Part shown: positions 5,603 to 57,999 of the stretch, piece after piece | Position numbering within the stretch: the stretch's first letter is position 1 | How the letters are laid out: each line of letters opens with the position of its first letter | Source: Octopus vulgaris | Lineage: Eukaryota | Assembly (NCBI GenBank): GCA_951406725.2 | Contig: OX597816.1 | Span: 35,774,001 to 35,838,000, forward strand | Reading direction: 5' to 3' | DNA: 64,000 nucleotides | Translations under genes and position numbers: made by a program | The notes under the pieces: model-generated | What the model saw: only the letters and a program-made list of their open reading frames with translations | Told to the model about the DNA's origin: nothing | Database searches by the model: none

Positions 5603-5680
5603 CACGGCAAAAATTTGCATCGATCCTAATATAATATAACAGTAACAACCATAATAATTACAGCCGATAATTTGTCTTAC

Positions 5681-5897: not shown

Positions 5898-5966
5898 ATT
5901 GTCTATCGTCTGTATCAACATTTTCAACATATTTATTACATAGCTAACACATTTTGTCATCTCAGG
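5898..5966 (-). CDS. Candidate internal exon (PEMTKCVSYVINMLKMLIQTIDN)
   Basis: Acceptor gatttttcggatag, donor AAT|gtaact; 69 nt, phase-compatible with the exon at 5681-5757 across a 140-nt intron. Confidence 0.22.
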
Positions 5967-6321
5967 CTATCCGAAAAATCAATCATAACAAAATGTGGTA
6001 CAAAATTTTGACATTAAAAAAAACATACATTCTTCTATACCAATATTCCTGTCTCATCAGAAGACACAACTAAAACGCCAAGATTTGCTTAAAATATCTA
6101 CAATGGATTTTCATTAAGATTTCACGCTAACAACTTAGTGTCAAACACAGACGCCTTTGCACGGCCGAAAAATTTTTATTCTTCATTTGGTAGGGAGGAA
6201 AGAGAGGTAATCAAATGTTAAATCTGATTTCAGGATTTCAAATTAAGCAGGAACCCTTCCCCTTCCACACGGCCTGTAATGAACTACTTGAAGTCACATT
6301 AATGGATACTACATTCCTTGC

Positions 6322-6409
<88 letters not shown>

Positions 6410-6584
6410 ATTCGAGACAAAACCACTATTTTAAAATCAAACAAGGAAAGACTTAATTAATACATAACATTTTAATATAAATTAAATAAACCGCCACTAC
6501 AATTATATTATATAATATTTTACTATAAAATTGGATTTAATCCTAAATCTGATTTTTCCCTCTAATTTTGGATTCATTCCCTAA

Positions 6585-6653
<69 letters not shown>

Positions 6654-6684
6654 TCTATTTTCTCTCCTTGTTTATTTCTGTGCT

Positions 6685-6721
6685 CCTTTCTGTCGAAGAG
6701 CATAGGCTCGAAACCTAAAGG
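6685..6721 (+). ncRNA. Minimal hammerhead-like motif, U6 core variant, within a ~160-bp pseudo-LTR-like repeat (6650-6808)
   Basis: CCTTT-CTGTCGA-A-GAGC-ATAG-GCTC-GAAAC-CT-AAAGG; stems I and II pair, cleavage triplet degenerate. Confidence 0.5.
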
Positions 6722-6974
6722 TCTTTCTCACTTCACGAGCGTTAAACTAATACATTTGTTTGTTGTTTACACACCAGTCTTCGTCTTTTTTTCGTAAATT
6801 CTCACTATATGTGTGTGTGTGTGTGTCTGTGTGTGTGAGTGCGCATGTGTGTGTGTGCGTGTGTGTGTGTGTGTGCGTGCGTGAGTGTGTGCTTTCGATG
6901 CGAATTGTTTTGTTATACGGTCCCGTGTTTTACAATCCTGTAAATAATAATAACCGTATGCTTATTAGCTTAAA

Positions 6975-7211
6975 GGGCGGCGAGCTGGCAGAATCGTTAG
7001 CACGCCGGGCGAAATGCTTAGCAGTATTTCGCCTGCCGTTACGTTCTGAGTTCAAATTCCACCGAGGTCGACTTTGCCTGTCATCCTTTCGGGTTCGATT
7101 AAATAAGTACCAGTTACGCACTGGGATCGATATAATCGACTTAATCCGTTTGTCTGTCCTTGTTTGTCCTCTCTGTGTTTAGTCACTTGTGGGTAGTAAA
7201 GAAATAGGTAT
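6975..7211 (+). mobile_element. tRNA-derived SINE, family B (Meta-domain-like centre)
   Basis: Head GGCGGCGAGCTGGCAGAATCG..GAGTTCAAATTC; centre TCATCCTTTCGGG.TCGAT..AAGTACCAG; multiple copies in window. Confidence 0.85.
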
Positions 7212-7213
7212 AC

Positions 7214-7590
7214 ATATAAGCTTAAAGCTTATGGCGTTCACCCTGCAATGACCAAGGAAAGTAGTCTAATGAGCCCTTAACCATATGCTTTAAGCTTATA
7301 TAAATAATATCATTATTATTTTTAGGATTGTGAAAAACGACACCGTATAACAAAACCATACGTACCAGAAGCATATAGAAAGTTATTTACTTTTTACACA
7401 GAACAAATATGAACTAATATTGTTGTTAAATTTGTCAAAAACAGGGCGGCTAATTCGCTTGTGTAAATATAACACAGTCGCCGTAAAAAGCGATGTGGTT
7501 TCGAGTCCCACGGGGATCGGAATGACTTCTTTTATTAGACTATTTTCCTTAGTCATTGGACGGTGATCACCATAAGCTTTGAGCTTATAT
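7214..7590. repeat. Nested inverted repeats (MITE- or pLTR-like)
   Basis: 7214-7270 is an imperfect reverse complement of 7534-7590; a shorter inverted copy lies at 7281-7301. Confidence 0.75.
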
Positions 7591-7769
7591 AAATACCATT
7601 ATATATATATCAAATGTGAGGATAAAATTCTTTTCGAAAAAAATTATTTTTTCGAAAAAAATTTCATCAATGGGCTGGAGTATTTCTATTTTGGATGTAT
7701 TTGCCCATGACTTAGTATTTGCTTCTTCCATGGGTATGAGTAAGTATCTCATTTATTTATTTTGCCACA

Positions 7770-7827
7770 TGTATCACTGACGAAGAGAGGGCTCTTAGTA
7801 GCTAACTCTGAAATCGGTCCGATATGG
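7770..7827 (+). ncRNA. Minimal type I hammerhead ribozyme motif (canonical core)
   Basis: GTATCA-CTGACGA-AGAG..CTCT-GAAAT-CG-GTC-CGATAT; near-palindromic stem III (ATCGGT), one mismatch in stem I. Confidence 0.7.
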
Positions 7828-7970
7828 TAATAATGGAATGCTTTAGAAATTTCTGTCGACCCTTTTTCGAGTAGCGTGCGTATTGTGAAAAAAATATATG
7901 GTTAATGGACAATATGTCCAATTTTTCGGCATATTTGGCATTAGAATTTTTTCCTTTGCCCTCATTTATG

Positions 7971-8056
<86 letters not shown>

Positions 8057-8619
8057 CAGGCAAAATAGACAGTTATAAATCTCAAGACGAGATAGATTAA
8101 TACGTATGAGCAGCAAAGCAAGTAGCCACATGTAAGTGGCAGATGGATGTTACTACTAGTTGAACCCCATGGCGAACTCTTCATCAGCTGGTTTTCGGTG
8201 CAATCTCTGCACCCTTATATACAATACGTTGCTAGGAGAGAGAGCGAGCCCTTACTACCCACTAGTAGCGGACAGGATCACCGGACCTGCCAGTTCATTT
8301 ATTAGATTATTATTCAGTTGCTTATTCCACGTGTAATACCTTCCTTTTCAATATGTTCGTTGTTGACAATTGTAAGTGCAGTGCAGGAAATTAGAGAGAA
8401 ATATACTTCTTTGTTATTGGGAGTTTTAAGTTTTTCTCATTATTTACAAGCGAATATCTAAATGCATATTTATAAATTTATATTTGTGATAATACTTCAT
8501 CGGGAAATGCACATGATCCTCAGACTGAATTTGACAAAAAATGATATTGCATAAAAGGAAAAGAAAAGAAAAGACAATGCCCCATCCCAAAATAAACGTA
8601 TTTCTAAAAATATTTTAAA

Positions 8620-9350
8620 AAAATATCAACAAGTGTATGGTCGAGAGAGGAGGCTTCATTCAAAGTAGCCAACCTCAGCTTACATCACGGCTTCAAGATG
8701 GGTGCAGAACCTGGAGCATGCATCCCTTACTGTGTTAGTGGAGAGATCTCCGAACAGCTACTTCGTCTTACAACACTAGTTCGATTTTCATGTTACTGGT
8801 TGGTGTCTTTCTCAAAGTTGTCCCTCTCATTGTAATCTGTGGGATTATAATGAGGTAAATTAGGAGGGCAGATATTAAGGATAGTAAAGTCGTAGTAATT
8901 CCCAGGGAGTTATTTCTGAAACTTTCCTGAAGTATAGCAAAGACTCAAATCCTGCTGCCGCATATGTATTCTTCCAGCAGCAATCGTCTCCAACCAGGGC
9001 TTGACCACAATCACCAGCAACTTCACATAGCCGTTTTTATTGAGACTACTTCCATGTTCAAAGATGTGGGGATTACGTTTGACTTGCAGACACAGCAAGA
9101 ACGTCTGCTATGACCCATATGGCCACGGCTTTATAATCTTCGGTGGGGCAGTCCATGTCACATCTTACAGTCTTTGCCGTGTCTACAGGGCATCGATCAG
9201 CAGCCATGATTTCGGCATTTTGATATCCAGAGTGAATTATCATGATACAATCAACTCTTTAGGTGGCTTTCAGTCCTCTATGTCTACTAACTTTTTCTCA
9301 AATACAAGTTTAAGCGTTATGCTCTCTAACGCCATTGACGTTTCACTAAA
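8620..9350 (-). mobile_element. Decayed Tc1/mariner-superfamily transposase remnant (maT-like)
   Basis: HMRQQDLSLCYTS resembles WQQDSAPCHTS; CPPNLPHYNPTDY resembles WPPNSPDLNPLDY. Confidence 0.65.
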
Positions 9351-10244
9351 ACGTCAAGCTATTCCTGAAAAGGGGATATAAAAAATCGTGAAATTTAGCC
9401 CGAAAACCCACTAATAAATCTCATACAGTATCGGAATTGTTATTGGTTAAGTGGTTAAGATAATGTCTAATACTTCGAACAATAAAATGCAGTAACATGT
9501 TTAAGTAATCATTCAACAATGCTGTTCTAATTTTTTAATCCTTATGACACCATATGACACATATTTATCCATATGCTATTATGTTCTGGTGACATTCCAA
9601 ATAATTTGCTATCAAATTAACATTGAAATATTCCGCGATAATCGTTTTTAGAAATCGATAGGATTTTTTGAAGACCTTAAATATTAAATTGTTGACCTCT
9701 AGTGAATTTTAGCATACTAGAATACAATAAACAACTGCATTGATATTTTGTTTTTGTGCATTTACTTGTGCATTTACAAATACTCTATTTGATAATTACA
9801 TTAAATAGAAATAAGCGAGTTGTATGTATTCGATTCAGTCAATTGCACATTTGCTCTTTCTATCTTGTATATTACTTTGTAAAATGAATAAAATAATTGA
9901 ATGAAAACTACTCACGGTAAAAGGAATTATTTCAGAGTTCAAAATGGCACATCTTTTTCATTAGATTTTATATTTTTTTACCAATATTAATAAAAATGTC
10001 AGAAGGAGCAATACTCCATTTAATGTTTGCTTACATGCAATACGAGATAAATAAATACATTATTTTTTATTATATTAGCGCTTGATTGGTGGTAAAATAT
10101 AATCGATAGTCTTTCCACTATGCCGCAAACTACAGCAATGATATAAATTTCCATAGTATCCTATTTCATAATAATAACAGTTAAAATATATTCAAAGATT
10201 TTACTCATCAGTCGATCTTCATTTCATTCAATATCATCTAAATG

Positions 10245-10458
10245 TTAGAGTGGATACCATGCGGATTTCGATTGGCTATTAACATTAATAGCGTTCATTT
10301 TAGTTACTAATGAAAACGGTCCGTTTACAACACAATTTTTCACACCCTCTTCTGAATGTGCACAACGGTGAACCCATACTTGTATATATTGCCGGGTCAA
10401 CTTAAAGCTACTGTTGTACACAGTGCTAAGTTTACTATTGTTAACGTCCAGTTTATAT
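10245..10458 (-). CDS. Candidate terminal exon of an unidentified gene (..RQYIQVWV..SKSAWYPL*), weakly C2-domain-like
   Basis: Open 70-codon non-repetitive frame after ttggcag; the ending WYPL* resembles the last strand of C2 domains; no further support. Confidence 0.25.
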
Positions 10459-10564
10459 CTGCCAATGTTTTCAAACATTGCACAAATTTTAAGAAAATAG
10501 AATCACTTGCATTGGCTTATGCCATTCTGACGCTCAGTAAATATCTAATAATCTTTTCTATTAT

Positions 10565-10750
10565 GGGCACAAGGCCTGAAATTTGGGGGAAGGAAAAGTG
10601 CGATTTCCGCGACCTCAGTACTCAGATGGTACTTATTTTATCGACCCCGAAATAATGAAAGGCAAATTTGGCCGCGGTGGAACATGAACTCAAAGGGATA
10701 ATGCCGCAAACATTTTGCCCGATGTGCTAACGATTCTGCCAGTTTGCCAC
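10565..10750 (-). mobile_element. SINE family B, diverged
   Basis: GGTACTTATTTTATCGACCCCGAAA..GCTAACGATTCTGCCAG. Confidence 0.75.
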
Positions 10751-11252
10751 TTTAATAAATATTTAATAATGAATATATGATCACTATGCCATACACACAT
10801 GCATACATATATAATTACTTAGGAATATCTATTGGCCATTGATACGAAGTTTACAAATCCTCTCACCAAGATACAGTTTCAGTTATATACCTATTGCTAT
10901 TGGAGCAACATAATACATCCCAAATCGCCTGGAGCAAGGTATTCTTTTGTTCGTTTACTTGTCTCTGTCATTTGATTGCGGCCATGCTGGAGCTCTGCCT
11001 TGTGTTTAAATTTGAATTTTGGAAGATGTAAGGGCGTCTCTTTATTTCCTATGCTACACATTAACACGATATTTGAGTCAATACAAATATACAAGACCTT
11101 AAATTTTGAAAGATAGTGCACAAAAGAAGATCCTCTCCGTTACAACCTTGCTACTAAGCAGACGGCTGTTTAAGATTAAGTCTATATGTAAATGAGAAAA
11201 ATGATTGACACACACGCGTGCATATACCTATATGTATGTATGTATGTATGTA

Positions 11253-11656
11253 TTCTCTTTTACTTGTTTCAGTCATTTGACTCTGGCCATGCTGGAGCAC
11301 CGTCTTTTAGTCGAGCAAATCGATCCCAGGACTTATTCTTTGTAAGCCTAGTACTTATTCTATCGGTCATTTTTGCCGAACCGCTAAGTTAGGGGAACGT
11401 AAACACACCAGCACCGGTCGTCAAGCGATGTTGTGGGGACAAACACAGACACACAAACATATACACACATGTACATATATATACGTATATGCGACGGGCT
11501 TCTTTCAGTTTCCGACTACCGAATCCACTCACAAGCTTTTGGTCGGCCCAAGGCTATAGTAGAAGACACTTGCCCAAGGTGCCACGCAGTGGGACTGAAC
11601 ACTGAACTATGTGGCTCATAAGCAAGCTACTTACTACAAAGCCACTCCTACGCCTA
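11253..11656 (-). mobile_element. tRNA-derived SINE, family A, full length with internal microsatellite
   Basis: Reverse complement of AGGCG.AGGAGTGGCT.TG..GTAAGTAGCTTGC..GTTCAGTCCCACTGCG..TGACTGAAACAAGTAAAAGAG; many copies in window. Confidence 0.88.
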
Positions 11657-11749
11657 TATGAATAATTTTATTACAAAATCATAAATCATTTTAAATTTAT
11701 ATATACATATATAAGTATAATCCTTGGATGGAATTTATAAACAGTTAAT

Positions 11750-12900
11750 GCACTGCTAGATGCATTAAATGACTAGGCCACTAGTCAGTATCACTATGGA
11801 GGTCTGGAGTTGATGAACTCTTTGAACGCACTTTCAGCATCGGTTTGATTTTTGAACTACTCTTTCTCCCGCAGGAAACCATCTAAGTGCTTGAAAAAGT
11901 GGTAGTCGGTAGGAAAATATCGGGGGAATGAGCTGAGTTAGGAAGAACTTTATTGCCAAGTTCCCTCAACTTCTGGAACATCATTAGTGAAGCGTGTGGT
12001 CGTGCATTGTCATGAAGAATGATTGGCCCTCTTTTGTTGACCAGTCTGAGACAGAGGATTAGCTGTTCTTCACATATTTTGGCGATTTCATGGCAATCTG
12101 TTTCTGCAGTAATGTTTTTTTATACGTTTTAAGAAGTTATAGTGATTGAGTCCAGCAGTACACCATCGAACAGTCGCCATAACCTTCTTTTTGAGGAACT
12201 GGTGGTTAGTTTATGTTTTCAGTGCTTCATTCTGGTCCAACCACTGAGAAGAACTCTTTTTTTATTATTGTACAGAATCCACTTTTCATCGCAGGTATAC
12301 AACACGGCCGAGAAATGGACCGCTCTGACTACGAAATAGAAGCGTCGAGCAAAGTTCATATCTACACATTTTCTTATTTTCATTCAGAGCATGTGATTCG
12401 TAATCATTTTTTTAAATTTTCCAATGGCATGCAAATTTTGTAGGCAGTTTTCTATCTAAATTGAAGTTATTTTGGCAGTTCTCGAGTGGTTTTACGTGGA
12501 TCTTTCTCAACGACGGTCTTTAATTGTCCACCATCGATGACGATCTTCAAGACTCAGGGCACTACTGCGAAATTGTTTAAACCATATTCAAGCTGACCAC
12601 TGCCTGGTCATTTTCTCACCAAACGTTTCGGTGATATCGCGAGCAGTTTCAGCTGTTTTACGTCTTCTTTTGAAGTTATGTAGCAAAATTACTCGAATAT
12701 CGCGCTTTGACAATTCCGTTTCAGATTATTGTAACAACGGTGAAAAAATTATCAATGTTATTTTATTGATGCATTTAGGCAAGTCTATGTCTGTATTATA
12801 TGACAATTGCCAAAAAATGTTTAAAGGAAATTCAAAACTCTGCAAGAATCCGGTGCCATTTCGTCATAGTTCAAAACGTTGCTTGTTTAATACTCAACCT
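11750..12900 (-). mobile_element. Decayed mariner (DD34D-type) element
   Basis: Minus-strand LVNKRGPIILHDNARPH (~11995-12045) and PTDYHFFKHLD (~11880-11912); frameshifted. Confidence 0.85.
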
Positions 12901-13590
12901 GATATATACAAATTATAAAAATAATTTTAAAAATCATACAGTACAGTACTGTTTCTACTTCGTGGACTTTCACCTATCGCAGTGGAGGTGCAGTTTGGAA
13001 CGTAACACCTGCGATAGTCGAGGAATAACTGTCTATTCGAAAGCATATTTTTCTCTTCCAATATTTACACTTTAGACATTACGCAAATAATATTCTATAC
13101 AGAAACCGTGAATAAGTACAAGCAACTGAACAGCTTATTAATAGCGAAGAGTTTGTCAGATGTTTTGAATAATCCAACATTTTCTGCATGAACAACTGGC
13201 ACATAACGTCAGAATTCATGATTGAATTTACGATCTTCCAAATTCCGTATACACAAGTAAGCTCACAAGTGACAAGAGAAAATAAATACTGAACGTTTAA
13301 CCTTACATTGATTCCTTTATTTCATGGGAATGCTTTGACGTTTAATACATGCCATTTTCCTGAATAGCATTTTCTTAACGTTTTTATGCATGGCAGCAAT
13401 CCTGTTTTACCTGAGCATAATACTTATCTATTGCATCAGCTCTTTATATGTAACATTTTCTTATTGTGCAAGATCACGGCTATACAGTCTGTTAATGTAT
13501 TCTCTATGCATTAAAACCAGGACGTGTATACTCACACGCAAATACACACATACATAGGTGTTTATGTGTATGTATATTCCCATCAATCTA

Positions 13591-13631
<41 letters not shown>

Positions 13632-13664
13632 GAGGCACTGAGCAGTTATACGCACACATACACA

Positions 13665-13819
13665 CACGGCAGTAACTTCCGCCTACCGAATTCAATCACA
13701 AAGCGTCGGTGGGCTCGGGGCTATAGTAGAAGATACCTGCTCAAAGTGCCACGCAGTGGGACTGAACCCGAAACCATGTAGCTAGTAAGCAAACTCCCTA
13801 ACCACACAGCCATGCCCCT
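13665..13819 (-). mobile_element. SINE family A, head half
   Basis: GTGCCACGCAGTGGGACTGAACCCGAAACCATGT..ACCACACAGCC. Confidence 0.75.
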
Positions 13820-14669
13820 ATCAATCTATCTATATCTATATGTGTGCGTGTGTGTGTGTGTATATATACATATATACATATATATGTGAGTTTACGAGAG
13901 TGTGTGTGAATATGTATGTGTACATATGTATACTTAATTATAAATGTTTTTATGAGTATATTGTACTTGTGTATGTTGGCATCTGTATATGTAGATACAC
14001 ATATATATGAGCATGTATGTATGTAAACATTCATGTATGTATGTATGTAAGTATGTATATGTAAATATATAAATACTTCTACAGTTGTTCTTCGTGGTTG
14101 GTGTATGATACTGCCTGAGTCGTTTCTTTTATGGTTGTTCGTGTTAATTGGGAAATATTTGTATCAGGTAAATTTGCTGCTGCTGTTGTTTTTGTTCAGA
14201 TTAAATAAATATGTTAATAATGGAATTTGACTGTGATTTATATTAGATCTTGTAACTGCATCGAGACTCTTGTGTGAGGAGAAAATAACTGGATTTTCGA
14301 CCAAAACATAACTACCGTCGTTTATAGCAAACCATTCTTTAAGTAAAGTGTACTAGCCATCTGAATGTGGCTAGCCACTGGGGGTGGGTGTTACTGACGC
14401 TTTTAGCCCCAGGAGATCCACGTCTCCAGCTGTCCGTAGACATAATTTCTGTGCCCTTATGATATTTGCAAAGGGAGGTCATCCTCCCTACCTCCCAATA
14501 GAAGCTCGAACAGGATGCTGCATCTGCGAAAGATCGAAAGCAATCGTACTGTTTCATTTAAAACAATATATAAGTTTCTTTAAATCATGAAATTTAGCAA
14601 CAAACTAACAGACTTCAAAATGCAAAATATTTGAAATCCTCAACAGAACGCAGAAAATATTGATTTCAA

Positions 14670-14878
14670 ATTTTATTACAAGGCCAGTAGTTTCGAGGTA
14701 AGTGTGTTAGTCCATTAAATCGACCCCAGTGCTAAACTGATACTTATTTTATTGACCCCGAATGGATGAAGGGTAATGCCAACTACGGCAGAATTTTAAC
14801 TCAGAACGTGAAAACGAACGAAATGCAAGCAAGGCATTTTACCATACGTGCTAATTAATTATTCTGCCCGCTCACCGT
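14670..14878 (-). mobile_element. SINE family B, diverged
   Basis: ATCGACCCCAGTG..ACTTATTTTATTGACCCCGAATGGATGAA..AACTCAGAACG. Confidence 0.75.
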
Positions 14879-15824
14879 TTAATCAAATCAGAAAACATTC
14901 TCGAATAACAGTAGTAGGTTGGAGTGCTTATCTTGGAATCGCAAGTTAGTGAAAGCACAGCAATTAGAAAGACATATTGTCTATTATTTGCTAACTCATC
15001 ATTGCACGTTATGCTTTTAATTGAAATGTTCGAATAATTTTTCCTTGAAATAAGCACGTCTTTAAACTGAATTAATACTGACACGTATTCTTCATTAGAA
15101 AAGAAAAGCTTTGTGTCACCTAAATGCTTTTTCGTCCCTTGTAATACGCGGGAAATAAAAATTACAATAAAAAGTAACGTCTGTAGAAAAATAAGAAATA
15201 CAAATCGCCAATATTATTTTATGGTAATTCAAGTAAATCTTGATGTTCTAATACAATCTACCACTGCCTGTTTTGTAAAATTACACCGTTATTCTCCACA
15301 TTTACGTAGAATTCTGACAAATCAAACAAGTAGAGTAGCAAAGTAATTCTATAACCCAAAGTTGAAAATTCACATGTGATTCCTAAAGAGTGAAAACATT
15401 TAAGTGAATATTCACAAAGAAAATAGCAAAAGTAAACGTCACAGTAAATGATAATCGTACGTTTTGTTGAAGAGAGATCAAGTTAAAGTTGATCCAGTCT
15501 AAGGAAGCAATATACATTACAATATCACGTAGTATTTTACCGTATGCATTTCAGATAAAATCTGAAGGATCTATAGCATAGGAATACAGACATTTATTTC
15601 AATTGGTACTTTCTCATTTGTAACTAGAATGTGTAAGTAGGCCGTATACATGTACAGACCAAAGGCCGAATGATTCAATGTTTGAAGAAATGCTGTGAAG
15701 CTAAGACCTGTATGGACGTGTATTCACGGGTGGCCCCATAAATCGGCCATTTCTATCTTTATCTAAATACTCTACTGCTCTATTACTTAGAGCATGCTTA
15801 TCCCTCGGATTTATGATTCACTGC

Positions 15825-15869
<45 letters not shown>

Positions 15870-15876
<7 letters not shown>

Positions 15877-16162
15877 ATCACGTGACCGACCAGGCCATCA
15901 GATGTTGTTACACATCGCTGGTCACAATGTGTTCGCATTGTTTTAGCCTTCGAATGACGCCACCCCGCTGGCTAAGCGAGCAGGCCAACAGAAGAAAGAG
16001 TGCTGATCACCACCAACAGCAGGGATCACCACCCCCTGCCGGAGTCTCGTGGAGCTTCTAGGTGTTTTCGCTCAATAAACACTTACAACGCCCGGTCTGG
16101 GAATCGAAACCGCGATCCTACAACCGCGAGTCCGCTGCCGTAACCACTGGGCCATTGCGCCT

Positions 16163-16164
<2 letters not shown>
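15870..16164 (-). mobile_element. tRNA-derived SINE, family C, with CACGTGATCACGTG tail, flanked by (TA)n on both sides
   Basis: Head GGAGGCGCAATGGCCCAGTGG..GGTTTCGATTCCC shared with 46897 and 20437; different tail. Confidence 0.8.
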
Positions 16165-16224
<60 letters not shown>

Positions 16225-16314
16225 TAATAAATAAAATATATGCATACATACATACATATATGTACGTACCTACATTTACATGTATATATACATGCATATA
16301 TAAATATATATACG

Positions 16315-16495
16315 TGAGTACAGGACACCACAAATAGACGTAGAACTCAACGAGAAACGAAAACGTAAAAACAAGCATGGAACGGACCATTCTTTTACAA
16401 CGAAAAAACAGAGTACAAGAGAAACTACACAAGGAAAATTCCCTTTCATCAGATGTCCCTGGTTCAACTCCAGCGTGTTTCGAAGGTGAGGACAT
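16315..16495 (-). repeat. Dispersed pseudo-LTR-like repeat; relatives at ~5120-5290 and ~41800-41960 (+)
   Basis: Shared blocks CTGANGAAGGG..TGTACTC..GTTTTCGTTTC..TG.TGTCCT.TAC.CA. Confidence 0.6.
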
Positions 16496-16607
16496 ATATA
16501 TATATATATAACGAGAAGGTTTACAAAAATAAACAAAAGACGAAGGCAGGTGGAGTACAAACAAACAAATGTATTAGTATGGCGTTCAGGAATAGAAATA
16601 GAACAAG

Positions 16608-16645
16608 TCTTTTACGTTTCAAGGCTACGCTCTTCAACAGAAAGA
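16608..16645 (-). ncRNA. Minimal hammerhead-like motif, U6 core variant, in pLTR-like repeat 16510-16705
   Basis: TCTTT-CTGTTGA-A-GAGC-GTAG-CCTT-GAAAC-GT-A-AAAGA. Confidence 0.55.
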
Positions 16646-16708
16646 TACACAGAAAAGAAACGAGGAGAGAAACAAGGAGAGAAAAAAATGCGTGCAGGAG
16701 CTAACACA

Positions 16709-17131
16709 CTTTACTGTTTTTCTCATTTCAGTCATCTTGACTATGGCCATGCTGGAGCACCACCTTTAGTCGAGCGAATCGACGCCACGACTTACTCTTT
16801 GTAAGCCTAGTACTTATTCTATCGGTCTATTTTACCGAACCGCTAAGTTACGGGGATGTAAACACATCATCATCGATTGTCAAACGATGTTTTGGTGACA
16901 AACACAGACACCCAAACACATACACACACACACACACATACATATATATATACATATATACGTCGGGCTTCTTTCAATTTCCGCTTACCAAATCCATTCA
17001 AAAGGCTTTGGTCGGCCCGAGGCTATAGTAGAAGCCACTTGCCCGAGATGCCACGCAATGGGACTGGGACTGAACCCGGAACATTGTGGTTGGCAAGCAA
17101 GCTACTTACCACCCACACACTCCTACGCCTA
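16709..17131 (-). mobile_element. SINE family A, full length
   Basis: Collinear with the other family A copies. Confidence 0.88.
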
Positions 17132-17173
17132 TATATATATATATATATATTATATATTATTATTATTATTATT

Positions 17174-17726
17174 GAATGAGAGAGCAGTTCATGCCATCAA
17201 AGAGACACTAGGGTAAAATATACGAAGCCCAATATACCCATCATGACTACTCGACTGATAAGGGTAAAATAGGCACATGCATCACAACCATATGTGCGTG
17301 ACATGGTGATCTCATATCAACACAAACAGCACCTGACCTTGCAGGTGGGGCCCAGTTAGAATTTTCTTCAGGATGAGTAGCCCAACCCGCTCAAAAGGTC
17401 CCTGAATAAGAGTTGTTTAAGGATGTTGAAAGAATCACCCATGTTTCCAGAGGTGAACTATTCAAACCCCAAAGAATCCCTCTCAACACATGGCTATGAT
17501 GCTCCCCACTACTTCTGCTCGTGAAAAGAGATGCACATATTGTCAACCACCAAGGAACATGCTCAACTGGTTAAGGTCAAACAACTGACAAGCAAATCTG
17601 TGGTATTGAGCAGAATATTTGCTGTAGCCCATCTTTTATACCAAGACAAAACAATGTACATGATGACACTTCCAATCAGTTAAGATCAGAAGCCATGAGA
17701 GCCACTGCCTGGTACTGCATCAGGGC

Positions 17727-17730
<4 letters not shown>
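17174..17730 (-). mobile_element. ~555-bp non-coding retroposon-like element in (TAA)n, copy 1
   Basis: Highly similar to 17761-18123, 43229-43789 and 44066-44616; (TTA)n on both sides; orientation inferred from one-sided truncation. Confidence 0.85.
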
Positions 17731-17760
<30 letters not shown>

Positions 17761-18121
17761 GAGTGAGAGAACAGTGCATGCCATCAAAGTGACACTAGAG
17801 TAAAATATACGAAGCTCAGTTTACCCATCATGACTACCCGTCTGATAAGGGTACAATAGGCACATGCATCACAACCATATGTGCGCGATATGGTGATCTC
17901 ATATCAATATAAACAGCACATGACCTTGCAGGTGGGGCCCAATTAGAATTTTCTCCTGGTCGAGTAACACATCCTGCTCAAAATGTCCCTGAATAAGGGT
18001 TGTTTAAGGAAGTTGAACGAAACACCCATGTTTCCAGAGGTGAATTATTCAAACTTCAAAGAATCCTTCTCAACACTTGGCTATGATGCTCCCCCACTTC
18101 TTCTGCTCGTGATCAGAGATG

Positions 18122-18123
<2 letters not shown>
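17761..18123 (-). mobile_element. ~555-bp element, copy 2, 5'-truncated
   Basis: Same left end GAGTGAGAGA; stops at TCAGAGATGCA, then (TTA)n. Confidence 0.85.
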
Positions 18124-18200
<77 letters not shown>

Positions 18201-18302
18201 GCGTGTGTTTCTGTGCGTGCGTGTGTGTGTGTGTGTGTGTATACATGCATGTCTATAGCGATCGACCGGCCTACAACACTATACACCCATAAATCCACTC
18301 AC

Positions 18303-18344
18303 CATAATTTATTTTGGCTGAACTCCATGTATTACTGCTTAACA
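18303..18344 (-). CDS. Candidate 42-nt symmetric (phase 1-1) exon (xLSSNTWSSAKINYx)
   Basis: Strong acceptor ttctgtattttcag and donor ATG|gtgagt; length is a multiple of 3; single open frame. Confidence 0.38.
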
Positions 18345-20436
18345 CTGAAAATACAGAATTAATGTACCAGTAATCACATCGCGTCCACATAACTATGAAT
18401 TGTTGTTTCAGCTTTCTGTAATCCCTTCATAACAGTTAATTTTTAGTGTTTCCTATGGGGATGTCGAAGATAAGAAACCAATATACTGCACAGCATCTTT
18501 CTCAGTGTCTGCATTCGCAATTGGTGCGCTGTTACGGGAGTTCCATGATTTTGAGTAGTGTAGAAACGCATCTTAGTGGAAATTCTTTCCAGGTTTAATC
18601 TAACCCGGAGTAGTAGCACTTTTTAGGATCCCAGCTATGGGTTGTATAGCATGTGAACCACTCGGAGTGAGGAGCCCCTAGCTCTCGTTGGAATTTCCTC
18701 CTAGGAGAAGGTAAATCTGTATAAATAAACCTGAAATGCAATCAACTTCTGGCCGTTTCAACGCACGTTGCGCTATTGGTGTTATAGCTGATTACGCTGA
18801 AAGTGGATCCTGTGCTGTGCAACAGTTTATTCACTCAAAACAAATTTACATCTAGAAATTTCATGGAGTCTTGAAATATTTCCATGGCCTTACTATAGTG
18901 AGTAAGTGGTCTTACTCGGTTACGATTTGACTTCCCACCACCACCATATTCAACTCATTAGCACAAGCCGAACAATAATGTATCGTTAGCGATGTGTATA
19001 CATTCAGGGACATTTTACAGTTAGAAATTTAAACAAACAGCATTTCAAATATTCTACAATGCTATTGGGAATAGCTTCTGACCTGACGTTTCAGTTGATT
19101 CTTTTACATAACTATTGGCATTTTCGTGTAATTGAAAAATTTGATTCCATCTGAGACATGGGTTTTATAGTATCTGGCAAAATAATCAACCCTAAAGCGT
19201 ATTGAATTAAACTGAGCTTTTTATTTTTATTTTTTCTTTAGAAAGCAATGGCTGATAAATAACGTAATGAAAGTGGAAAAAATCTAAGTATCGTACATCT
19301 TAAACAAAGATTTGAACAAAGGATACATAATTAAATGCTAGTAACAAAGAAAAACAAAGCTGAGGTTGGGTAGGTCAGAGAAGCTCGCCAATATATTATA
19401 TTATCAAGAGACTTATTTCACTTATGAACAAGTATGTTGTGATTTATGCATTCTTGTAATACATGTGTAATTTTCCTGATGATATATAGAATGTTGTAAA
19501 GATTTTCGTGGCTTGTTATTAAGTGCAAATCTTTATTGCACAGGGAATTAGTAAGAAAAAATTAGAGGTATGCACCATTTACATGTTCCAACGTTTAATA
19601 AATTGTCATTCTCCAAGATTGAAAAAACTCAATGGTATATTACATATAAACAGATAAAATCTAACTGTATCCTGACTATAGATATCGAAACTCTAACTTT
19701 ATAATGATGTCTTAAGTTTATGCTGTCAAATTCCATTACTGAAAATATAAAACAATACATCAAATATATGTATAAGGAAGAAAAATAACGAATTTGAAAA
19801 AATACTATATGTTATACGAAGAACATAATCGTATATCATCCCATTGCCTCATAATATTTGTTTGTTTTTGTTTTTGTTTTTTCTAACTGAAAGAACGGAA
19901 AATACTATCTACGAGGAAAACGTACTCGTTTATCGTCGTTTAGGTATAATGGATATAATAAGGGATGCTGGTGTATGATCTTCCCCTCACTACCACATTT
20001 CTTTGATATTCTAAGACACGTCTTGCTGTCGCTTCAGATAATATATCCAAGTAGAATCACCAGATCCTACAAATCCGTCATATAACTTTCTTATCAGCTT
20101 CGCTTCCCTGTTAGCTTATCATGGCGCCGTAATACTTTGTTTCTCACAGCTCACACAAATATTTCAGTTTCGAAAGTTATACATGGACAGAATACATAAA
20201 AAAAACGTATTTGAAAGAGCGCATGCTAAAGTTAATGGCAGAAACTGCTCATATAAGTTTTTTCTGATTATAACATATATACTTTATAAGTAGATAGCTT
20301 TCATATAATAACAATAGCAATATCAGCGTCTATGAAAGAGACTACGTTTCATATTAATTAGGGATGCAAGCACAATGAAGTATTTGAGTATCACAATGAA
20401 TCGATCCGGGATATTTAATATTACGTGTTCGCAAGT

Positions 20437-20740
20437 GGAGGCACATGGCCTAGTGGTCAGAACAGCGGACTCGTGGTCGAGGGGTCGCGGGTTCGAATCT
20501 CACACCGGGTGATGTGTGTGTTTATGAGCGAAATACCTAAGCTCCACATGGCTCCGGCAGAAGGTAATAGCGAACTTCTGCTGACTCTTTCGCCACAACT
20601 TTCTCTCACTCTTTCCTCCTGCATCTTGCAGCTCACCTGCGACGGACCGGCGTCCCGTCCAGGTGGGGAACCTATACGCCAAGAAACCGGGAAACCGGCC
20701 CTATGAGCCAGGCATGGCTCGAAAAGGAACAAACAACAAC
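20437..20740 (+). mobile_element. SINE family C head with V-domain-like body; direct repeat at both ends
   Basis: tRNA-like head TGGCCTAGTGG..GGTTCGAATCTC; CCTGCGACGGACCGGCGTCCCGTCCAGG; (AAC)n tail; CAAGTGGAG at 20432-20440 and 20740-20748. Confidence 0.8.
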
Positions 20741-21594
20741 AAGTGGAGTTAGGACCCATTTTTATATCTCATGCGGCAATATCCCTGCTGTTTCGTGGCG
20801 TATGTCAGTTTTGAGTAGACTATTGTTAACCATGATTTCTTCATCCTTGTTCACTCGCTTATATTGGAAGACTTTTCTTCGAAATCAATAAGTTTCACTT
20901 TTTTCTGTGAAACTGATGATATATAGAATCCGATATAAGTTTCCTAGGCGACGGTAGTGATCTGTTACACTGTTCTCGTGGCGAATACAACCTGTAATCC
21001 CCCCGTACTTTTAATAGTATCCATGCCTCTAAACAGTGCAATACAAAAGATTATAATATTTCTTTGTACACTTTACACTGCACTTGAATCCGCTGGTGTT
21101 CTCCATGCTCAACATTGAGCATACCAGCCTAGGCTTGCACATCCTGCAGGAATGTTTGTCAGTGAAACTTTCATCACCAAAGCTTTTACTACCCAGGTAA
21201 CTAGAGTTGCTTCTTCTAGCGTCTGCTTCGTAATTGTCGCCAGCCCATATTGTGCCACTTGGTTCTTTGAAGCCTCATTAATACAGAACCTCGGGCATCC
21301 AGGTGTAAACATTTAAATTTAGATTTGTGGGTGCACTGACAAAAACAAAAAACGGGCTCTGCATTTCCCATTCCTATGGAAACATAGGTACATTTGTTTG
21401 CAATCGCATTCCTCTCATTGACGTGAATATGGTCTTAGTTGAAGTTTACAGTGCGACAACCTAGAGACAAAACATTGCGACGTGTTTCTATGTTTTCATA
21501 TATGCGTTTATATATATGGGTGTTTGTGTGTGTGTGTGAGTGTGTGTGTATGTATGTATGTACGTGTGATGTATGTCTCTCTCTCTTTCTCTCT

Positions 21595-21642
<48 letters not shown>

Positions 21643-21732
21643 TATATAAATTCCGTTGTCTGTGTGTGTGTGTGTGTATCTTTTAGGATCTCGGGCGTCC
21701 ACCATCCGAATGCGCTCAAATTTCAGATGTAG

Positions 21733-21958
21733 ATACCTATTTCTTTACTACCCACAAGGGGCTAAACACAGAAGGGACAAACAAGGACAAACACACGAAT
21801 TAAGTCGATTATATCGACCCCAGTGCGTAACTGGTACTTATTTAATCGACCCCGAATGGATGAAAGGCAAAGTCAACCTCGGCAGAATTTGAACTCAGAA
21901 AATAACGGCAGACGAAATACGGCTACGCATTTTGCCCGGCGGGCTAACGTTTCTGCCG
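21733..21958 (-). mobile_element. SINE family B
   Basis: Reverse complement of the 6975-7211 type. Confidence 0.87.
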
Positions 21959-22516
21959 GGCATGTATAAGTCTTGAAAAAATTACAAAAATCGATTCCAG
22001 GAGAGAATGCGACCGATAAAGCCATGGGAACGTGCATTTGTACGCGCCAGTACATCAGCTGTTGCGATCGATACAATTTGCACAAAAAAAAAAAAAGCCG
22101 GCTGGCTTGAAATAATGCCACAAAATGCAGTATATTTAAGAGACAAAAAATATGCAAAAGAGATATTTTCTCCAAACTTGACATTTCTTCCGTCAACCTG
22201 TACATAACTGCACCTTCCATTTTTTGTTGTTTTTGTACTGCTTAAAGACACGTTTCTTTCCTGCCAAGCTTACTGTTTAAACCATGCTTGTGTTCACCCA
22301 GTCAACATCCTTATCATTACTGGTAATTTGAATTCTTCGATTGCATATTTGTGTGAATAAAATCGTTTTTCTTCAGACTGAGGAAAAAAGTCTATCTTTA
22401 TTTCTTCTTTAGCTAGTGTCTCAAACTTAGGTTAAAACAGTGTTTGTCAAAGGGCAGGCCTATGTGACGGTCGGACAAGTTGTTTTGAGAAAAAATATAT
22501 ATATAAATATCTGATA

Positions 22517-22557
<41 letters not shown>

Positions 22558-22566
22558 TCTGATATG

Positions 22567-22613
<47 letters not shown>

Positions 22614-22827
22614 TATATGAAAGATGGAAAGAGAGAATTTACAGTCTAGTATAATCCAATTTGTGGCTAACAGCATCGGATAGTAAGGAATAACCTGGGA
22701 CTATATGAGGTAACCAATTTCAATATGTTTCATCCATGGGTAAATCCTGAGTTCGCTTCATTGGATTGTATACAAGACGGTTCAAATAAATAAGGTGAGT
22801 TATTCAGTTTTTATTATTAAGTCTTTA

Positions 22828-22978
22828 TGTTCTGAGTTCAAATTCTGCCGAGATCGACTTAGCTTTTCATCCTTTCGGGGACGATCAATTAAGTACCAGT
22901 TGCGTACTGGGTTCAATCGATTTGACTGGCTCCTCCCCACAAATTTCAGGCCGTATGCCTATAGTAGAAACGATTATT
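22828..22978 (+). mobile_element. SINE family B, partial
   Basis: GTTCTGAGTTCAAATTC..TTTCATCCTTTCGGGG..AAGTACCAG. Confidence 0.75.
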
Positions 22979-23810
22979 AGAGGCATTTATACGACATATG
23001 GGATTTAAACATTTCTGCGAGATATATTTCCACTACTTGACGTTAATTAACTAAATTAGGATATTGAATTCATGATCGCAAGATCACGGTTTCCATTCCG
23101 GGCCTGGGAATTCACAGTATTCTTGAGCAAGCCATTTCATGTTGTTCTATGGTCAATTCGATATCTATGTTGTTATGGCAGCGTGCAATTTTGCGACAGG
23201 CAATTTCAATTTGATAGAAGTGAGCTAAAGTGCTACATTTGAAACGAATTCGAGTAGGCTATTCAGCATTAAATTGCGGAACTATAACGTATATTTTTAG
23301 ATAGATAGTCACAATAGATAATCGGGTTAGTGCAACAGCAGTGTTGCAGTCCAAATCGTGGAGAATCTATAAGACGGTAAAAGAAGATATATCGATGAAG
23401 AATGATCTGCGTGTCATACAACGGGTATATGACCTTTGTTAGCTCTTCCCGTAACTATACATTTGCACATGTATCCCTATATAATTTGAGGATATATGCA
23501 CGTGTAATTATCACTGTTACATAAAGTAATGTGGATTGAATTTATATCTTATTTATAACTTCAAGTTTATTCATAATTAAGCCCCTACAATTAACTAAAG
23601 AATATGATATCAAAGAAATTTATATATATTGAACTTGAATATCCAAGGTGTAAGTCTAGATTCACCGACATTATACCTATTCATCTTCATGATAACATAT
23701 ATACGCATTATTGATTTTGGAGTAGTAAAAATGTTATAAAATATCATATAAACTGGCAGTAATATTGCATGTAGTTTCTTCTTACACCGACATACACAGA
23801 CATTCATCCC

Positions 23811-23897
<87 letters not shown>

Positions 23898-23901
23898 ACA
23901 C

Positions 23902-23947
<46 letters not shown>

Positions 23948-23957
23948 ATATATATAT

Positions 23958-24025
<68 letters not shown>

Positions 24026-25688
24026 ATATATATTAATATATATATATACATATATATATATATATTTATATATTAATATATATATATATATATATACATA
24101 CTCCCACACACATATAGACATATATATATATATTCATGTATGTATGTATTAGAGAAAAACGTGTAAACATTTTTCGATTGGCATGTACATAGAATGCTTA
24201 CTAATAAAATATCTTTCATGGTGACATGGAAATTAGCAGTCCAATGTATAGTTTATTGATTATCAATGCTCACATAACTTTTTTTTATTTCTAAATATCT
24301 TTACTCTGTGTTTTGTTTTATTTTATATAGAAGGAATTATGAAACAGACCAATTCTGATGAGTGCAAAAAATAAATTTCGACCAATTAGCTTTTAATTAA
24401 TAGACTGTTAGGATGAAATATTTGGTGTACGTATGTACATGAAGTGCTTTTATTAAATATATTAATGCAATTCTACTAATTTGTTTATCTGATAATATCT
24501 GGATAATTATACTCTAACGTTCGCGAAAATGACATTTTTTATATTGCTGAAAGAATAAGCTAATTCATAGCGACTAGAGAAAGCATATACACACCGTCTT
24601 TAACGTTATGGACACCTTTTTAATGTAAAAACATATACACAAGTTTCTATTTATACACCGTTTTAAGAAACTTTAAGAACTGTTTCTGTCTGAAACATTG
24701 TGAATATATATATATATTTATGCATATACCATGTATCCACTATTCTTCTGCAAAGTATTTCACGTTTGTAATTTGATGTGCGTCCGTGTCGTATCACAGT
24801 GTTGTATCACAGCGTTGTATCATAGAGTGGTATCTGTCTGAAAAGAGAAGAAATATTAGATATATTTCACTGAATTTATGGACATTATAGTTTTACGTAA
24901 TACTTAGTAATACTTAGTGTCCTGACATTTTCAATGATATGATTTGATCATATATTTACGCCTCGGTTCACATGCGTTTTCGGACGAATACTATAAAATA
25001 AACCGTGCAAGCGATGTATTAAGAAATATACTGCTCAAATTTACCTGTCACATTACTAATATTTACATGTCAGAATGAGATCCCTTCAAGCTAAAATCTG
25101 ATCGGATTTCGATCCAGAGTTTTAATGTCAATTCATATATCTCAGTAATACAGCTAAGATATTTTTAAAGTTTAAGGGAAAATAAATGTCGTTGGTTTAT
25201 AAGCATCCGACATCGTGCAAATATATGACATTATGCTTTTCAAATCTGACAAATGAAGTTATTTCCTTAGAGTTATATATTTTGCAATAATCTGGCATTC
25301 TTATGTCAGTCTTCAAAGTCAAGCACTCCGTAAATCACTCTATAAAACGCATTTATTAGCTCGAATTTTAATATAAATATCAATTTGAGAGGAAATATAC
25401 CTAGCTTAAGATGTCTAGGTTGTTGTTCCGTGTAAACCGGTTTCCTTGTGTTGTGAAATTCTTTTATATTAACTTATTTCTTGTTGTTGTCTCTTGAATA
25501 AAAATGATCCAAGAAATATACATACATTTTCTAAACTACCTTTATAGTAAATTTCTATATATACTTTATTTTCATTATAGTTTTTATTACGTAATAAAGA
25601 AATTATGTTTCATTACATCTGAAGACGCACGGTATTGCTGCAAATTAAAGCAGTGCTGTTATAGTTGCTTATTGAAAATCGGTATCTG

Positions 25689-25764
<76 letters not shown>

Positions 25765-25919
25765 TACACGCACACGTCGAGACCATCACCCCTCTTTCAC
25801 ACGCACATACATACTCTCTTATACATACACGCACATTCGTGTTAAGGGTCATCTTTACTTTGTTATCTCCCCTACTTCTTCCCCCTCGTGTGTGACCCTT
25901 CTGTCCGAAGTCGGTAGCC

Positions 25920-26206
25920 ATGATAGATCGTTAGCCACTACACACATTTTTTTCTCTCCTTGTTTCTCTGCTTGTTTTTTTCCGTAGAAGAGCGTAGGCT
26001 CGAAACGTAAAAGACTTTTTCTATTCCTGAGCGTTATACTAATACATATGTTTCTTTTGTACACCACCTGTCTTCGTTTTTTATTTTCTTTTTTGCTCGG
26101 GAAGTGAAAAAGTCTTTAATGTTTCGAGTTTACGCTCTTCCACAGGAACACAGAAAGAAACAAAGAGAGAAAATAAAGAATGTATAGTGGCTAACGATCC
26201 GTCATT
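25920..26206. repeat. Tail-to-tail inverted pair of the hammerhead-bearing pLTR-like repeat (motifs at 25977-26014 + and 26113-26150 -)
   Basis: GATCGTTAGCCACTA..GAAGAGCGTAGGCTCGAAACGTAAAAGAC..GAGC mirrored on the opposite strand. Confidence 0.85.
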
Positions 26207-26951: not shown

Positions 26952-27690
26952 GTCATTTACTTTTAATCTGCATGTTTGATGCAATCACTTGCCGGGGCAC
27001 ACCCAGCGCCCTAGGGCAAGTGAAGGTTAAGAGTTGTTGAAATATAGCTGAAAGCTTGGGGAGGGGAAGTAGAGAAATATCTCCATGTAATACATTACAA
27101 ACATTTACATTGATAGGATTTTTCTAAGGATGTGGGCAGTACTTGTTAGCACAATCTTTTGGACTTCTTTGAGACATGGTTCTCCAGGGATATTGTCTAC
27201 GTGTTTCTGACATCCCTTTTTTATCATACCTAGGGCACCTACAATAACACGAACAGTTTTTGTTTTACGATTCCACATCTTTTGTATTTTGATTTCCAGG
27301 TCCTTATATTTACAAAGTTTGTCAATTTCCTTTACATATATATTGTTATCAGTGAGGACGCTTACTTCTATTAGTCTGCAAGTATTTTCTTCCTTGTCTT
27401 TAACAATTATGTCTGGTTGATTAGCCTTGATCGTTCTGTCAGTGTTGACTGGAAAATCCCAGAGGATGGTGACATTTTTATCTTCAACAACTGGCTGAGG
27501 ATGATGTTCATACCAGTTAGCAAGAGTGCCGAATTTGTAGTGTTTACACATCTTCCAATGTATATACTGTCCTACCCTATCGTGGCGATTTTTGTATTCG
27601 TTTGGTGTCAGCACAGGACATCCGGAAACGAGATGGTCTATTGTTTCGGCAAATGTATCACAGAATCTGCATTTAGGGTACATGAATATA
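26952..27690 (-). mobile_element. 5'-truncated Dong/R4 element: CCHC finger + PD-(D/E)xK restriction-like endonuclease + 3' UTR
   Basis: ORF 27105-27683: CRFC..ETIDHLVSGC..RHDRV..LWDF..QPDII..LIEVSV..KYKDL..VGALG. Confidence 0.93.
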
Positions 27691-45031: not shown

Positions 45032-45401
45032 CTCCCTTTCATTCAGCCTCTTTTTTTCAATCATCTCGTTATGTTGGACCTTTGAACTGTGCATACTTTT
45101 CCTCTCTTCTTTTTTCCCCTCTTAATTCTCGCAACCTAAAAGATTTTCGCATTCTTCGTCAGCGTCATACTTAAACACCTGCTTGCTGCTCCTACACATG
45201 TGTTCGTCTTTTGTTTTCTGTAAATTTGCATTACATATATGTGTATGTGTATGTGTGCGTGTTTGTGTATGTGTGTGAGTGATTGCGTATGCATATGTAT
45301 ATATATTTACACATAACACTCTACTATATTCTATAATTTCTGTCTACTTAGCTAGCTATGTATCCATATTTATATGTGTATAGAGTGCGGATGTATATAT
45401 G

Positions 45402-57130: not shown

Positions 57131-57226
57131 ATCCAAACATGAAAACACAAAGAGAAAACACAACAACGCGAAGACGTGGAACAAGTATAGTGTTATTGGA
57201 CGCTCAGGAAAGTAAGAACGAAGTAA

Positions 57227-57262
57227 GACTTAAAGTTTCGAGCGGAGCTCTTCCTCAGAATC
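57227..57262 (-). ncRNA. Minimal hammerhead motif with canonical A6 core, relative of the U6 family; in pLTR-like repeat ~57128-57330
   Basis: GATT-CTGAGGA-A-GAGC-TCC-GCTC-GAAAC-TTT-AAGTC; downstream TTCCTGAGCGT..TAA.AC shared with the U6 copies. Confidence 0.55.
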
Positions 57263-57999
57263 ATAGAAAAAGGAAAGCTCCAAGGTAGGGAACACGGAGG
57301 GAAAAGATCGCCAACGATACACACGCAGCCGAAGCTATATTATTCTCCACAGGTAGAAGTATTTGTTAATTAGATGTTGAAAATGCACAGAGAACCGTAA
57401 AGGTATTTTTTAATTATTGTATTTAAAGATTTAACCGGTTTCACATCGGTTTCACGCCGGTTTACACACATTTTTTTAATGGAAACAGAAAGATGTGGTT
57501 TGTGTCACAGATGTTTTTCTTCTGACTAGTTATTTCAGTAGCTTGCCCTATTTTTATACTAAGTTCTAGGCATAAATTTCTATATGTTTTGAATAGGGTT
57601 TGATTAGTTGATGACTGATCTTAGAAATTTTTGCAGCTTTCCCACTACGTCCGTGTTTAGTGGCAAGTGACAATGTTTAGCCTCGTAAGTTAAGGCTGCC
57701 ACGGTTGATGAACAAGTTTTGTGGCAGTACTCAACGATGCTCTGAATGTTTTCTGATCAGTGTAAGCACATAAATGTGGAAGAATGTATGAAAAAGCACT
57801 GCTCGAATACCTGAGGCAGGGTAATATGCTTTATTATTAAAGCTGGAAAATAATCACAAAAATATCGTTAACAAACTGCTAGTCAGAAATTAATGTTACG
57901 GTTCGTCCGACAGCTTTGATTGAGAATCAAAATTGTCCGACGAACGGGAACGTAAATTGTTATAATATTTAATTTGCTCCTTATATCCTGCCTTACATA

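Follow-up and report, generated by a model that had tools for sequence, protein, structure and literature searches.

A 64-kb window of the Octopus vulgaris genome (contig OX597816.1, positions 35,774,001 to 35,838,000; the genome comprises 2.8 Gb in 227 contigs) contains four copies of a minimal hammerhead motif whose core has U instead of A at position 6 (U6). All four lie in the pseudo-long terminal repeat (pLTR) of a Penelope-like element (PLE). Is U6 part of the damage in these copies, or did a PLE family fix it and keep the motif for some function, as an earlier note on the window supposed? The four motifs, and a relative with an A6 core, were confirmed at the positions and with the cores given in Table 1. 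The four copies are short, 5'-truncated or fragmentary, every one carries private damage in the motif (the note had said several), and they distribute over four different subfamilies. Genomic copies, these four included, are dead and decaying neutrally. The family to which they belong answers the first half of the question: the U6 motif is real, large in scale and selected, and is a new core variant of a known RNA type.

The pattern CTG-NN-GAAGAGCGTAGGCTCGAAACGT had 16,332 exact matches in the genome, whereas the reversed control had 0; the motif is evidently not due to chance. Position 6 was T (U6 in RNA) in 15,730 of these copies (96.3%), A in 180 (1.1%) and C or G in 422. With stem II left free, the U6 family had at least 20,163 matches; canonical A6 minimal hammerheads of all families had 14,383 by a comparable, not identical, pattern. 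The same core was found in copies picked without regard to it. Among 29 non-query loci picked by DNA of the element's open reading frame (ORF), 7 had no motif in range and the other 22 all had CTGTNGA. The downstream flank alone retrieved 102 copies. Of these, 64 belonged to the U6 lineage (T6 in 56, C6 in 7, A6 in 1) and 32 to a sister family, every one of the latter with A6; the remaining 6 had no motif. The consensus was CTGTNGA in every U6 subfamily, flank-picked sample included. Thus, a PLE pLTR family has indeed fixed U6, and its consensus is not the canonical A6.

U4 variants of all kinds numbered 300 genome-wide. A6 (180) and C6 (~370) were about twice as frequent as the matching U4 changes (~100 and ~155), by hand counts on 100 listed matches, and C6 reached 7 of 32 copies in one old subfamily. 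A separate A6 or C6 subfamily within the U6 lineage was rejected for the copies inspected: 20 A6 and 30 C/G6 loci were scattered over all subfamilies in the manner of post-insertion mutations. A subfamily combining U4C with U6 was likewise rejected, U4C being sporadic. A second U6 family (CTGTTGAGGTAGCGAACCAC type, 11 loci) has G17 next and no stem I, and hence is not the hammerhead motif studied here. The U6 family is present in contigs under four organism labels; the variant table, which is incomplete, shows variation at N7 and H17. The same modified stem II, with a U.U mismatch and UUCG as its loop, occurs in two unlinked old U6 copies (L232:2215, + strand, and L233, - strand), which hints at a small side subfamily.

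The sister families have the cores CUGACGA, CCGACGA (a U4C subfamily) and CUGAAGA. A U6-tolerant scanner applied to related PLEs at 80 metagenome loci revealed 21 motifs in 18 loci; A6 was present in 21 of 21, U4C in 3 and U3-A8 in 3. The A6 in sister families and relatives indicates that U6 is derived. Sister family B1 has a 3-nucleotide (nt) loop II. The window relative at 57227-57262, which the earlier note had described as canonical and as sharing stem II and flank with the four motifs, does have an A6 core (CTGAGGA); however, it belongs to B1, its G7 is a private change, and its flanks match those of the U6 family at only 69 of 123 sites. In sister subfamily B2 (L056, L061, L044, L055, L074, L052, L058, L194), 7 of 9 copies had CCGACGA, along with a flank marker of their own. 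This fixed U4C, together with U4C in 3 of the 21 relatives, suggests that position 4 is tolerant in these elements. In one copy (L042:1420-1630), a sister-type upstream region and A6 core are joined to the U6-family loop II and downstream flank; this copy is a remnant of the A6 ancestor or else arose by recombination.

A tree built from the flanks of 230 copies, with motif columns masked, gave a ladder of subfamilies: three old T7 groups, followed by C7, G7+U17, A7, C7, T7 and T7+U17, the last only 0.8% from its own consensus. In 213 of 214 scored copies, the upstream and the downstream flank pointed to the same or to a neighbouring subfamily. The earlier note had described position 7 as freely varying. 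All four bases do occur (T 39, A 23, C 21 and G 13, by hand count, in the 96 T6 copies among the first 100 matches listed); however, N7 is not free inside one subfamily, and each base marks one. Across eight successive subfamily consensuses, N7, the most changed site in the whole alignment, changed at least 4 times and H17 changed twice (A/U only, never G), whereas the other 34 motif sites showed no change. In the flanks, 60 of 138 sites changed (Fisher p 9e-8 vs 0 of 34). Poly-T tracts inflate the upstream counts; with the downstream flank only, 24 of 77 sites changed (p 8e-5), and in the cleanest block 15 of 54 (p 3e-4). When N7 and H17 were counted in, p was 8.5e-6 for all flanks and 0.0018 for downstream only. 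The core is thus not changing at the neutral rate across subfamily consensuses, and it varies where a hammerhead tolerates variation, as had been proposed.

Could this invariance be accidental? If A6U killed the ribozyme once, the dead motif might have hitch-hiked with a successful master. A6 mutants are weak, inserted copies decay neutrally, and part of the sample was picked by exact core, all of which would suit such an account. However, inserted copies differ from their own consensus more in the motif (5.9% at non-CpG and 14% at CpG sites) than downstream (4.5% and 5.1%), so the invariance at master level does not result from low mutation. The contrast of 0 of 34 with 24 of 77 downstream sites arose despite three CpGs in the motif, and the ORF-picked and flank-picked samples yielded the same consensus. 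We therefore regard hitch-hiking as very improbable.

All eight consensuses have GAAAC-GU-A or GAAAC-GU-U, which comprises G12, A13, A14, the pair A15.1-U16.1 and a loopless palindromic stem III. Helix I is CUUU/AAAG (5 bp in S5-S7) and helix II is GAGC/GCUC, with an extra A inserted between positions 9 and 10.1. Both stems are invariant within the U6 family, so the covariation check that the earlier note had called for found none there; covariation was seen only against sister families and relatives. When subfamilies, sisters and relatives were aligned in 16 rows, 7 of the 8 pairs of stems I and II changed on both sides with 96.9% of cells paired, a value reached by 0 of 500 shuffles. This outcome should not be read as a probability, the rows being related and chosen by hand. 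For helix I, 95.3% of cells were paired and pair 2.4-1.4 is C-G vs G-C in the sisters. For helix II, G10.1-C11.1 was G-C in 16 of 16 rows, and 3 of 4 pairs changed on both sides in relatives.

Selection could also act on the sequence itself, independently of folding, if the block were part of a pLTR promoter, a splice acceptor following a pyrimidine tract, or an endonuclease site. PLE pLTRs do hold promoters (PMC6765202; published papers are cited here and below from excerpts), an intron of Drosophila Penelope ends at helix I (PMC4209133), and a pyrimidine tract stands immediately before the octopus core. However, the invariant block coincides with the limits of the hammerhead (the longest invariant run in the flanks is 13 sites), only N7 and H17 change inside it, and the stems covary with relatives. 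A7 creates an earlier AG with no sign of cost, S4 being a large subfamily. Putative RNA contigs covering the pLTR and 5' untranslated region (14 sources, strand and ends unresolvable) showed no joint at candidate splice acceptors. A role of this kind appears improbable.

The carrier element appears, by the features given in PMC8557442, to be a Neptune/Nematis-type (Neptune-like) PLE; the clade name Neptune is based on the linker and the (TA)n targets, not on a reverse transcriptase (RT) tree or named reference sequences. Upstream of the motif lies the end of an ORF, which encodes a CxxxxCxxC linker together with a GIY-YIG-like region. Of 20 long loci retrieved, three (L202, L203, L204) carried one motif before the ORF and one after it, as direct repeats separated by 4.2-4.4 kb. 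The L202 ORF (968 amino acids, positions 4527-7433, open) has DKSG at 375, YIDD at 617, a Pfam RVT_1 match (E 6e-8) and a CX2-5CxxC linker at 835; a C-terminal IIYCISCxxC..LYIGQT..F.EH is visible. Pfam GIY-YIG gave no match on L202 itself, and matches were precomputed for several of 120 homologues listed. The closest homologues among those listed were unnamed proteins 53-58% identical. The two pLTRs of L202, 3693-3896 (S7, the youngest) and 8073-8277 (S5), are of different subfamilies and 82% identical; a younger copy stands before an older body. The single ORF, the RT, the CX2-5CxxC linker, the C-terminal GIY-YIG-like region, the partial tandems and the (TA)n insertion sites are all features of endonuclease-positive (EN+) Neptune/Nematis elements (Craig 2021, PMC8557442); in contrast, the hammerheads of those elements, which were searched with CUGANGA, are called canonical. 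The octopus element terminates ~110 nt beyond the motif, in most cases within (TA)n. Almost all core-picked copies are short 5'-truncated stubs with no ORF alongside.

The ORF starts ~750 nt after the 5' motif and stops 600-1100 nt before the 3' motif; the motif is therefore non-coding. This bears on an account in which fixed T6 and free N7 follow from a protein-coding block, S-V-E-E-R-R-L-E-T-stop, with N7 as the wobble position of the valine codon. Such a frame is present, and N7 occupies one of its four-fold degenerate positions; however, the other four-fold sites never vary, poly-T tracts just upstream vary freely in length, and the stop is lost in U17 subfamilies. We consider this reading refuted by the ORF map and hardly credible.

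What, then, is the motif kept for? It has all published consensus features of metazoan PLE minimal hammerheads except A6 (Cervera and De la Pena 2014, PMC4209133). Shared features include the pLTR site, U-rich flank, helix I of 4-5 bp, the extra nucleotide between A9 and G10.1, the pair G10.1-C11.1, GAAAC-GU-H with a loopless palindrome, and the predominance of solo truncated copies with subfamily structure. The difference lies in the core: the published consensus is CUGANGAH, whereas the octopus family has U6 in every subfamily, and the core variant given in that paper is U3-A8, not U6. Helix II is also shorter (4 bp vs 7-8 bp in Schistosoma). The published PLE motifs cleave weakly, and solely as dimers or with an extended stem III. 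Canonical descriptors miss the octopus motif, as the earlier note had suggested: the PLE descriptor requires CUGANGA (PMC4209133), and an Rfam search of 201 nt around an intact copy gave no hammerhead family at E<=10, a result that may reflect the missing stem III, not U6. Rfam applied to the whole window gave microsatellite false matches and no hammerhead among the 150 of 211 matches listed.

The survey by Lunse, Weinberg and Breaker is said to hold ~150,000 PLE hammerhead variants. In the searchable literature, whose coverage does not extend to that survey or to the work of Brill et al. on selected core variants (both could contain U6), a natural A6U hammerhead was not found. Searches within PMC3088659, PMC7151607, PMC11014351 and PMC12192606 gave no A6U, and the literature on Penelope with Octopus, Neptune or cephalopod gave no description of the U6 motif. 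The nearest precedent is the A6C hammerhead of phage Bcep176 (Perreault 2011, PMC3088659; Naghdi 2020, PMC7151607), a natural ribozyme with a pyrimidine at position 6. It is weak and prefers Mn2+ (slow in Mg2+, ~0.3 per minute in Mn2+), showing that such a ribozyme can retain low, metal-dependent activity. It is, however, a single phage example with C6 and a full stem III, whereas the octopus motif has U6, more than 20,000 copies, a loopless dimer-type stem III and eight subfamilies. A model for protein-assisted cleavage is provided by Poseidon_Ac of Anolis (Frangieh 2024, PMC11167929), whose pLTR hammerhead cleaves only with the element's protein and leaves no cut ends in RNA-seq. In the Poseidon model, reverse transcription from uncut RNA starts downstream of the motif, which fits the octopus 3' end ~110 nt past the site. 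Poseidon_Ac differs in that its ORF starts inside the hammerhead, not ~750 nt downstream, and in belonging to another PLE clade; the excerpts of the report do not mention a position-6 change.

We think it somewhat probable that the minimal type I hammerhead of this Neptune-like PLE is, with U6, a selected, slow, probably protein- or dimer-assisted putative ribozyme. We infer a slow, gated ribozyme, since the NUH rule and those catalytic bases that are unpaired have been preserved by selection. A master lineage would have swapped A6 for U, after which the motif was held under selection; C3-G8, G12, A9, A13-A14, A15.1-U16.1 and G10.1-C11.1, all kept, would continue to form the catalytic core. 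Within a tandem transcript, pairing of two pLTR copies via ACGU may create stem III, and cutting would then take place after GUA or GUU. To fire, the ribozyme would thus depend on a second copy, which supplies the ACGU dimer helix, and probably also on the protein encoded by the element. U6 is predicted to slow the rate and to let the monomer rest as a rod that masks the dimer palindrome; most template RNA would thus stay uncut long enough for reverse transcription through the site. Slow cutting would suit the element, because copies are made from RNA running through the site. A more ambitious proposal is that U6 is an adaptive rewiring and not damage: the single motif would pre-fold stems I and II and hide the ACGU dimer helix, and this switch would open on contact with a partner copy, a non-Mg2+ metal or the protein of the element. 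We offer this model-based proposal tentatively and consider it doubtful.

Several observations weigh against a ribozyme. The lowest-energy monomer fold was the rod in 7 of 7 U6 subfamily representatives; stems I and II are kept in it, and U4.G16.2, G5-C15.2 and U6-A15.1 are predicted to pair and cover the dimer palindrome. Four A6 motifs folded alongside lost stem I instead. Loop II (GUAG) is as invariant as the core, for which catalysis alone is an insufficient explanation. The cut site was traversed in 96 of the 102 flank-found copies. Apart from L042, the 214 scored copies included no subfamily chimera broken at the cut site, a kind of product that might be expected under a circular-RNA model, and of 21 direct (TA)n 5' junctions only 2 fell exactly at it. 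In published work, A6C caused a more than 10,000-fold loss in one ribozyme at 0.3 mM Mg2+ (PMC7151607), every single CUGA-turn mutant in a full mutational scan had low activity, the C3/G8 swap being the one exception (PMC9901934), and hammerhead mutants of Poseidon were unaffected in insertion in vitro (PMC11167929). As regards sampling, subfamilies were delimited by eye on the flank-only tree, S1c consists only of exact-core-picked copies, and S7 nearly so (2 unbiased copies).

Nearest-neighbour energies do not favour an active dimer, either for U6 or for the A6 sister: the dimer values lie between -3 and -8.5 kcal/mol, whereas the best cofold reaches -21 to -24. Ten of the 21 (TA)n junctions fell 0-5 nt after the cut site (binomial p 0.003; from the first 100 of 340 rows listed, leaving out 14 loci with untidy junctions and 2 internal duplications). 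This cluster is explained equally by RT pausing at a hairpin or by microhomology.

The rod fold, the invariant loop II, the traversed site, the weak CUGA-turn mutants and the dispensability of cleavage for insertion in vitro all favour another explanation, namely, that A6U made a non-cutting rod hairpin, composed of stem I, three new pairs, an internal loop rich in purines and stem II, and that this hairpin is kept for recognition, by shape or by sequence, by a host protein or by the RT/endonuclease of the element. Pairing of N7 and H17 is absent or optional in the rod as well, and Naiads thrive without canonical hammerheads (PMC8557442). However, the rod offers no partner to C3, G8, A9, the extra A, G12, A13, A14 and U16.1, none of which ever changed, and H17 moved between A and U only. 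In C7 subfamilies, the margin over the open fold shrinks to as little as 0.2 kcal/mol; the z-scores of the rod, from -0.6 to -2.2, are weak, and U6-A15.1 lacks covariation support (7 rows paired, 9 unpaired). We regard the rod as a possible explanation that falls short of being probable. The earlier reading is thus partly supported, with a non-catalytic rod that leaves N7 and H17 unpaired as its live rival.

Table 1. Copies of the U6 family and its sister family in the 64-kb window
Feature	Position	Strand	Remarks
pLTR copy, U6 family, subfamily S2 (C7), 5'-truncated	6646..6801	+	nhmmer match, tree placement; adjoins (TA)n tract
U6 hammerhead motif, core CTGTCGA	6685..6721	+	damaged: loop CpG decay, G16.2>C, one stem I A lost
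pLTR copy, S5/S6 type, 5'-truncated	16496..16717	-	holds element's 3' end beside (TA)n; 91% to 3' pLTR of full-length L202
U6 hammerhead motif, core CTGTTGA	16608..16645	-	damaged: two changes in stem II 3' arm
5'-truncated copy, part of 3' untranslated region and pLTR, subfamily S4 (A7)	25760..26090	+	begins at (TA)n tract
U6 hammerhead motif, core CCGTAGA	25977..26014	+	U4C sporadic; stem II and GAAACGTA intact
Inverted pLTR fragment, G7 core and U17 (S3 type), 3'-truncated	26093..26205	-	tail to tail with copy 25760..26090
U6 hammerhead motif, core CTGTGGA	26113..26150	-	loop/stem II and G16.2 damaged
Old degenerate pLTR fragment, part downstream of the motif	45128..45226	+	core not recognisable
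pLTR copy, sister family B1 (consensus core CUGACGA, canonical A6)	57147..57315	-	motif CTGAGGA at 57227-57262

The window also contains, at 60203-60250 (+), a canonical minimal hammerhead of a third family (CUGAUGA, 6-bp stem II, long loop), in which a small deletion after GU places G at position 17. This family is very common; over half of the A6 matches among the first 100 listed belong to it. Elsewhere in the genome, another short repeat family (L221-L231) terminates in the perfect hairpin AACCACG-AAA-CGTGGTT, upstream of which the words CCGAAAC and CTGATGA occur; it is possibly a hammerhead of different topology. At 25918-25932 of the window, ~65 nt upstream of the core in the U6-family pLTR, lies a four-codon frame, ATG-x-x-CGY-stop, which is kept in every covering U6 subfamily consensus with a stop alternating between TAG and TGA; it may be due to chance. 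Other dispersed repeats of 190-225 nt, 83-93% alike and resembling short interspersed elements, occur at 6987-7211 / 21733-21957, 11435-11655 / 46459-46679 / 63450-63664 and 50488-50677 / 63676-63865. A 206-amino-acid open frame with Cys/His motifs at ~27108-27725 (-) resembles a retroelement fragment.

The need of PLEs for hammerhead cutting is in doubt, in view of low activity in vitro, insertion without cleavage in the one reconstituted system and clades without the motif. Here, a lineage altered a 'conserved' core base and then spread to more than 20,000 copies over eight subfamilies, in which otherwise only the two free positions changed. The A6 sister lineage in the same genome is a natural control. 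If U6 is an adaptive rewiring, the most abundant hammerhead of this genome would be active as a ribozyme despite departing from the textbook core, and would be invisible to CUGANGA searches. Cleavage by the U6 motif would extend the natural hammerhead core to U6, and descriptor searches would be missing more than half of the minimal hammerhead-like motifs of the genome (20,163 vs 14,383 matches, patterns not identical). If it does not cleave, the hammerhead fold would have been conserved for a non-catalytic job.

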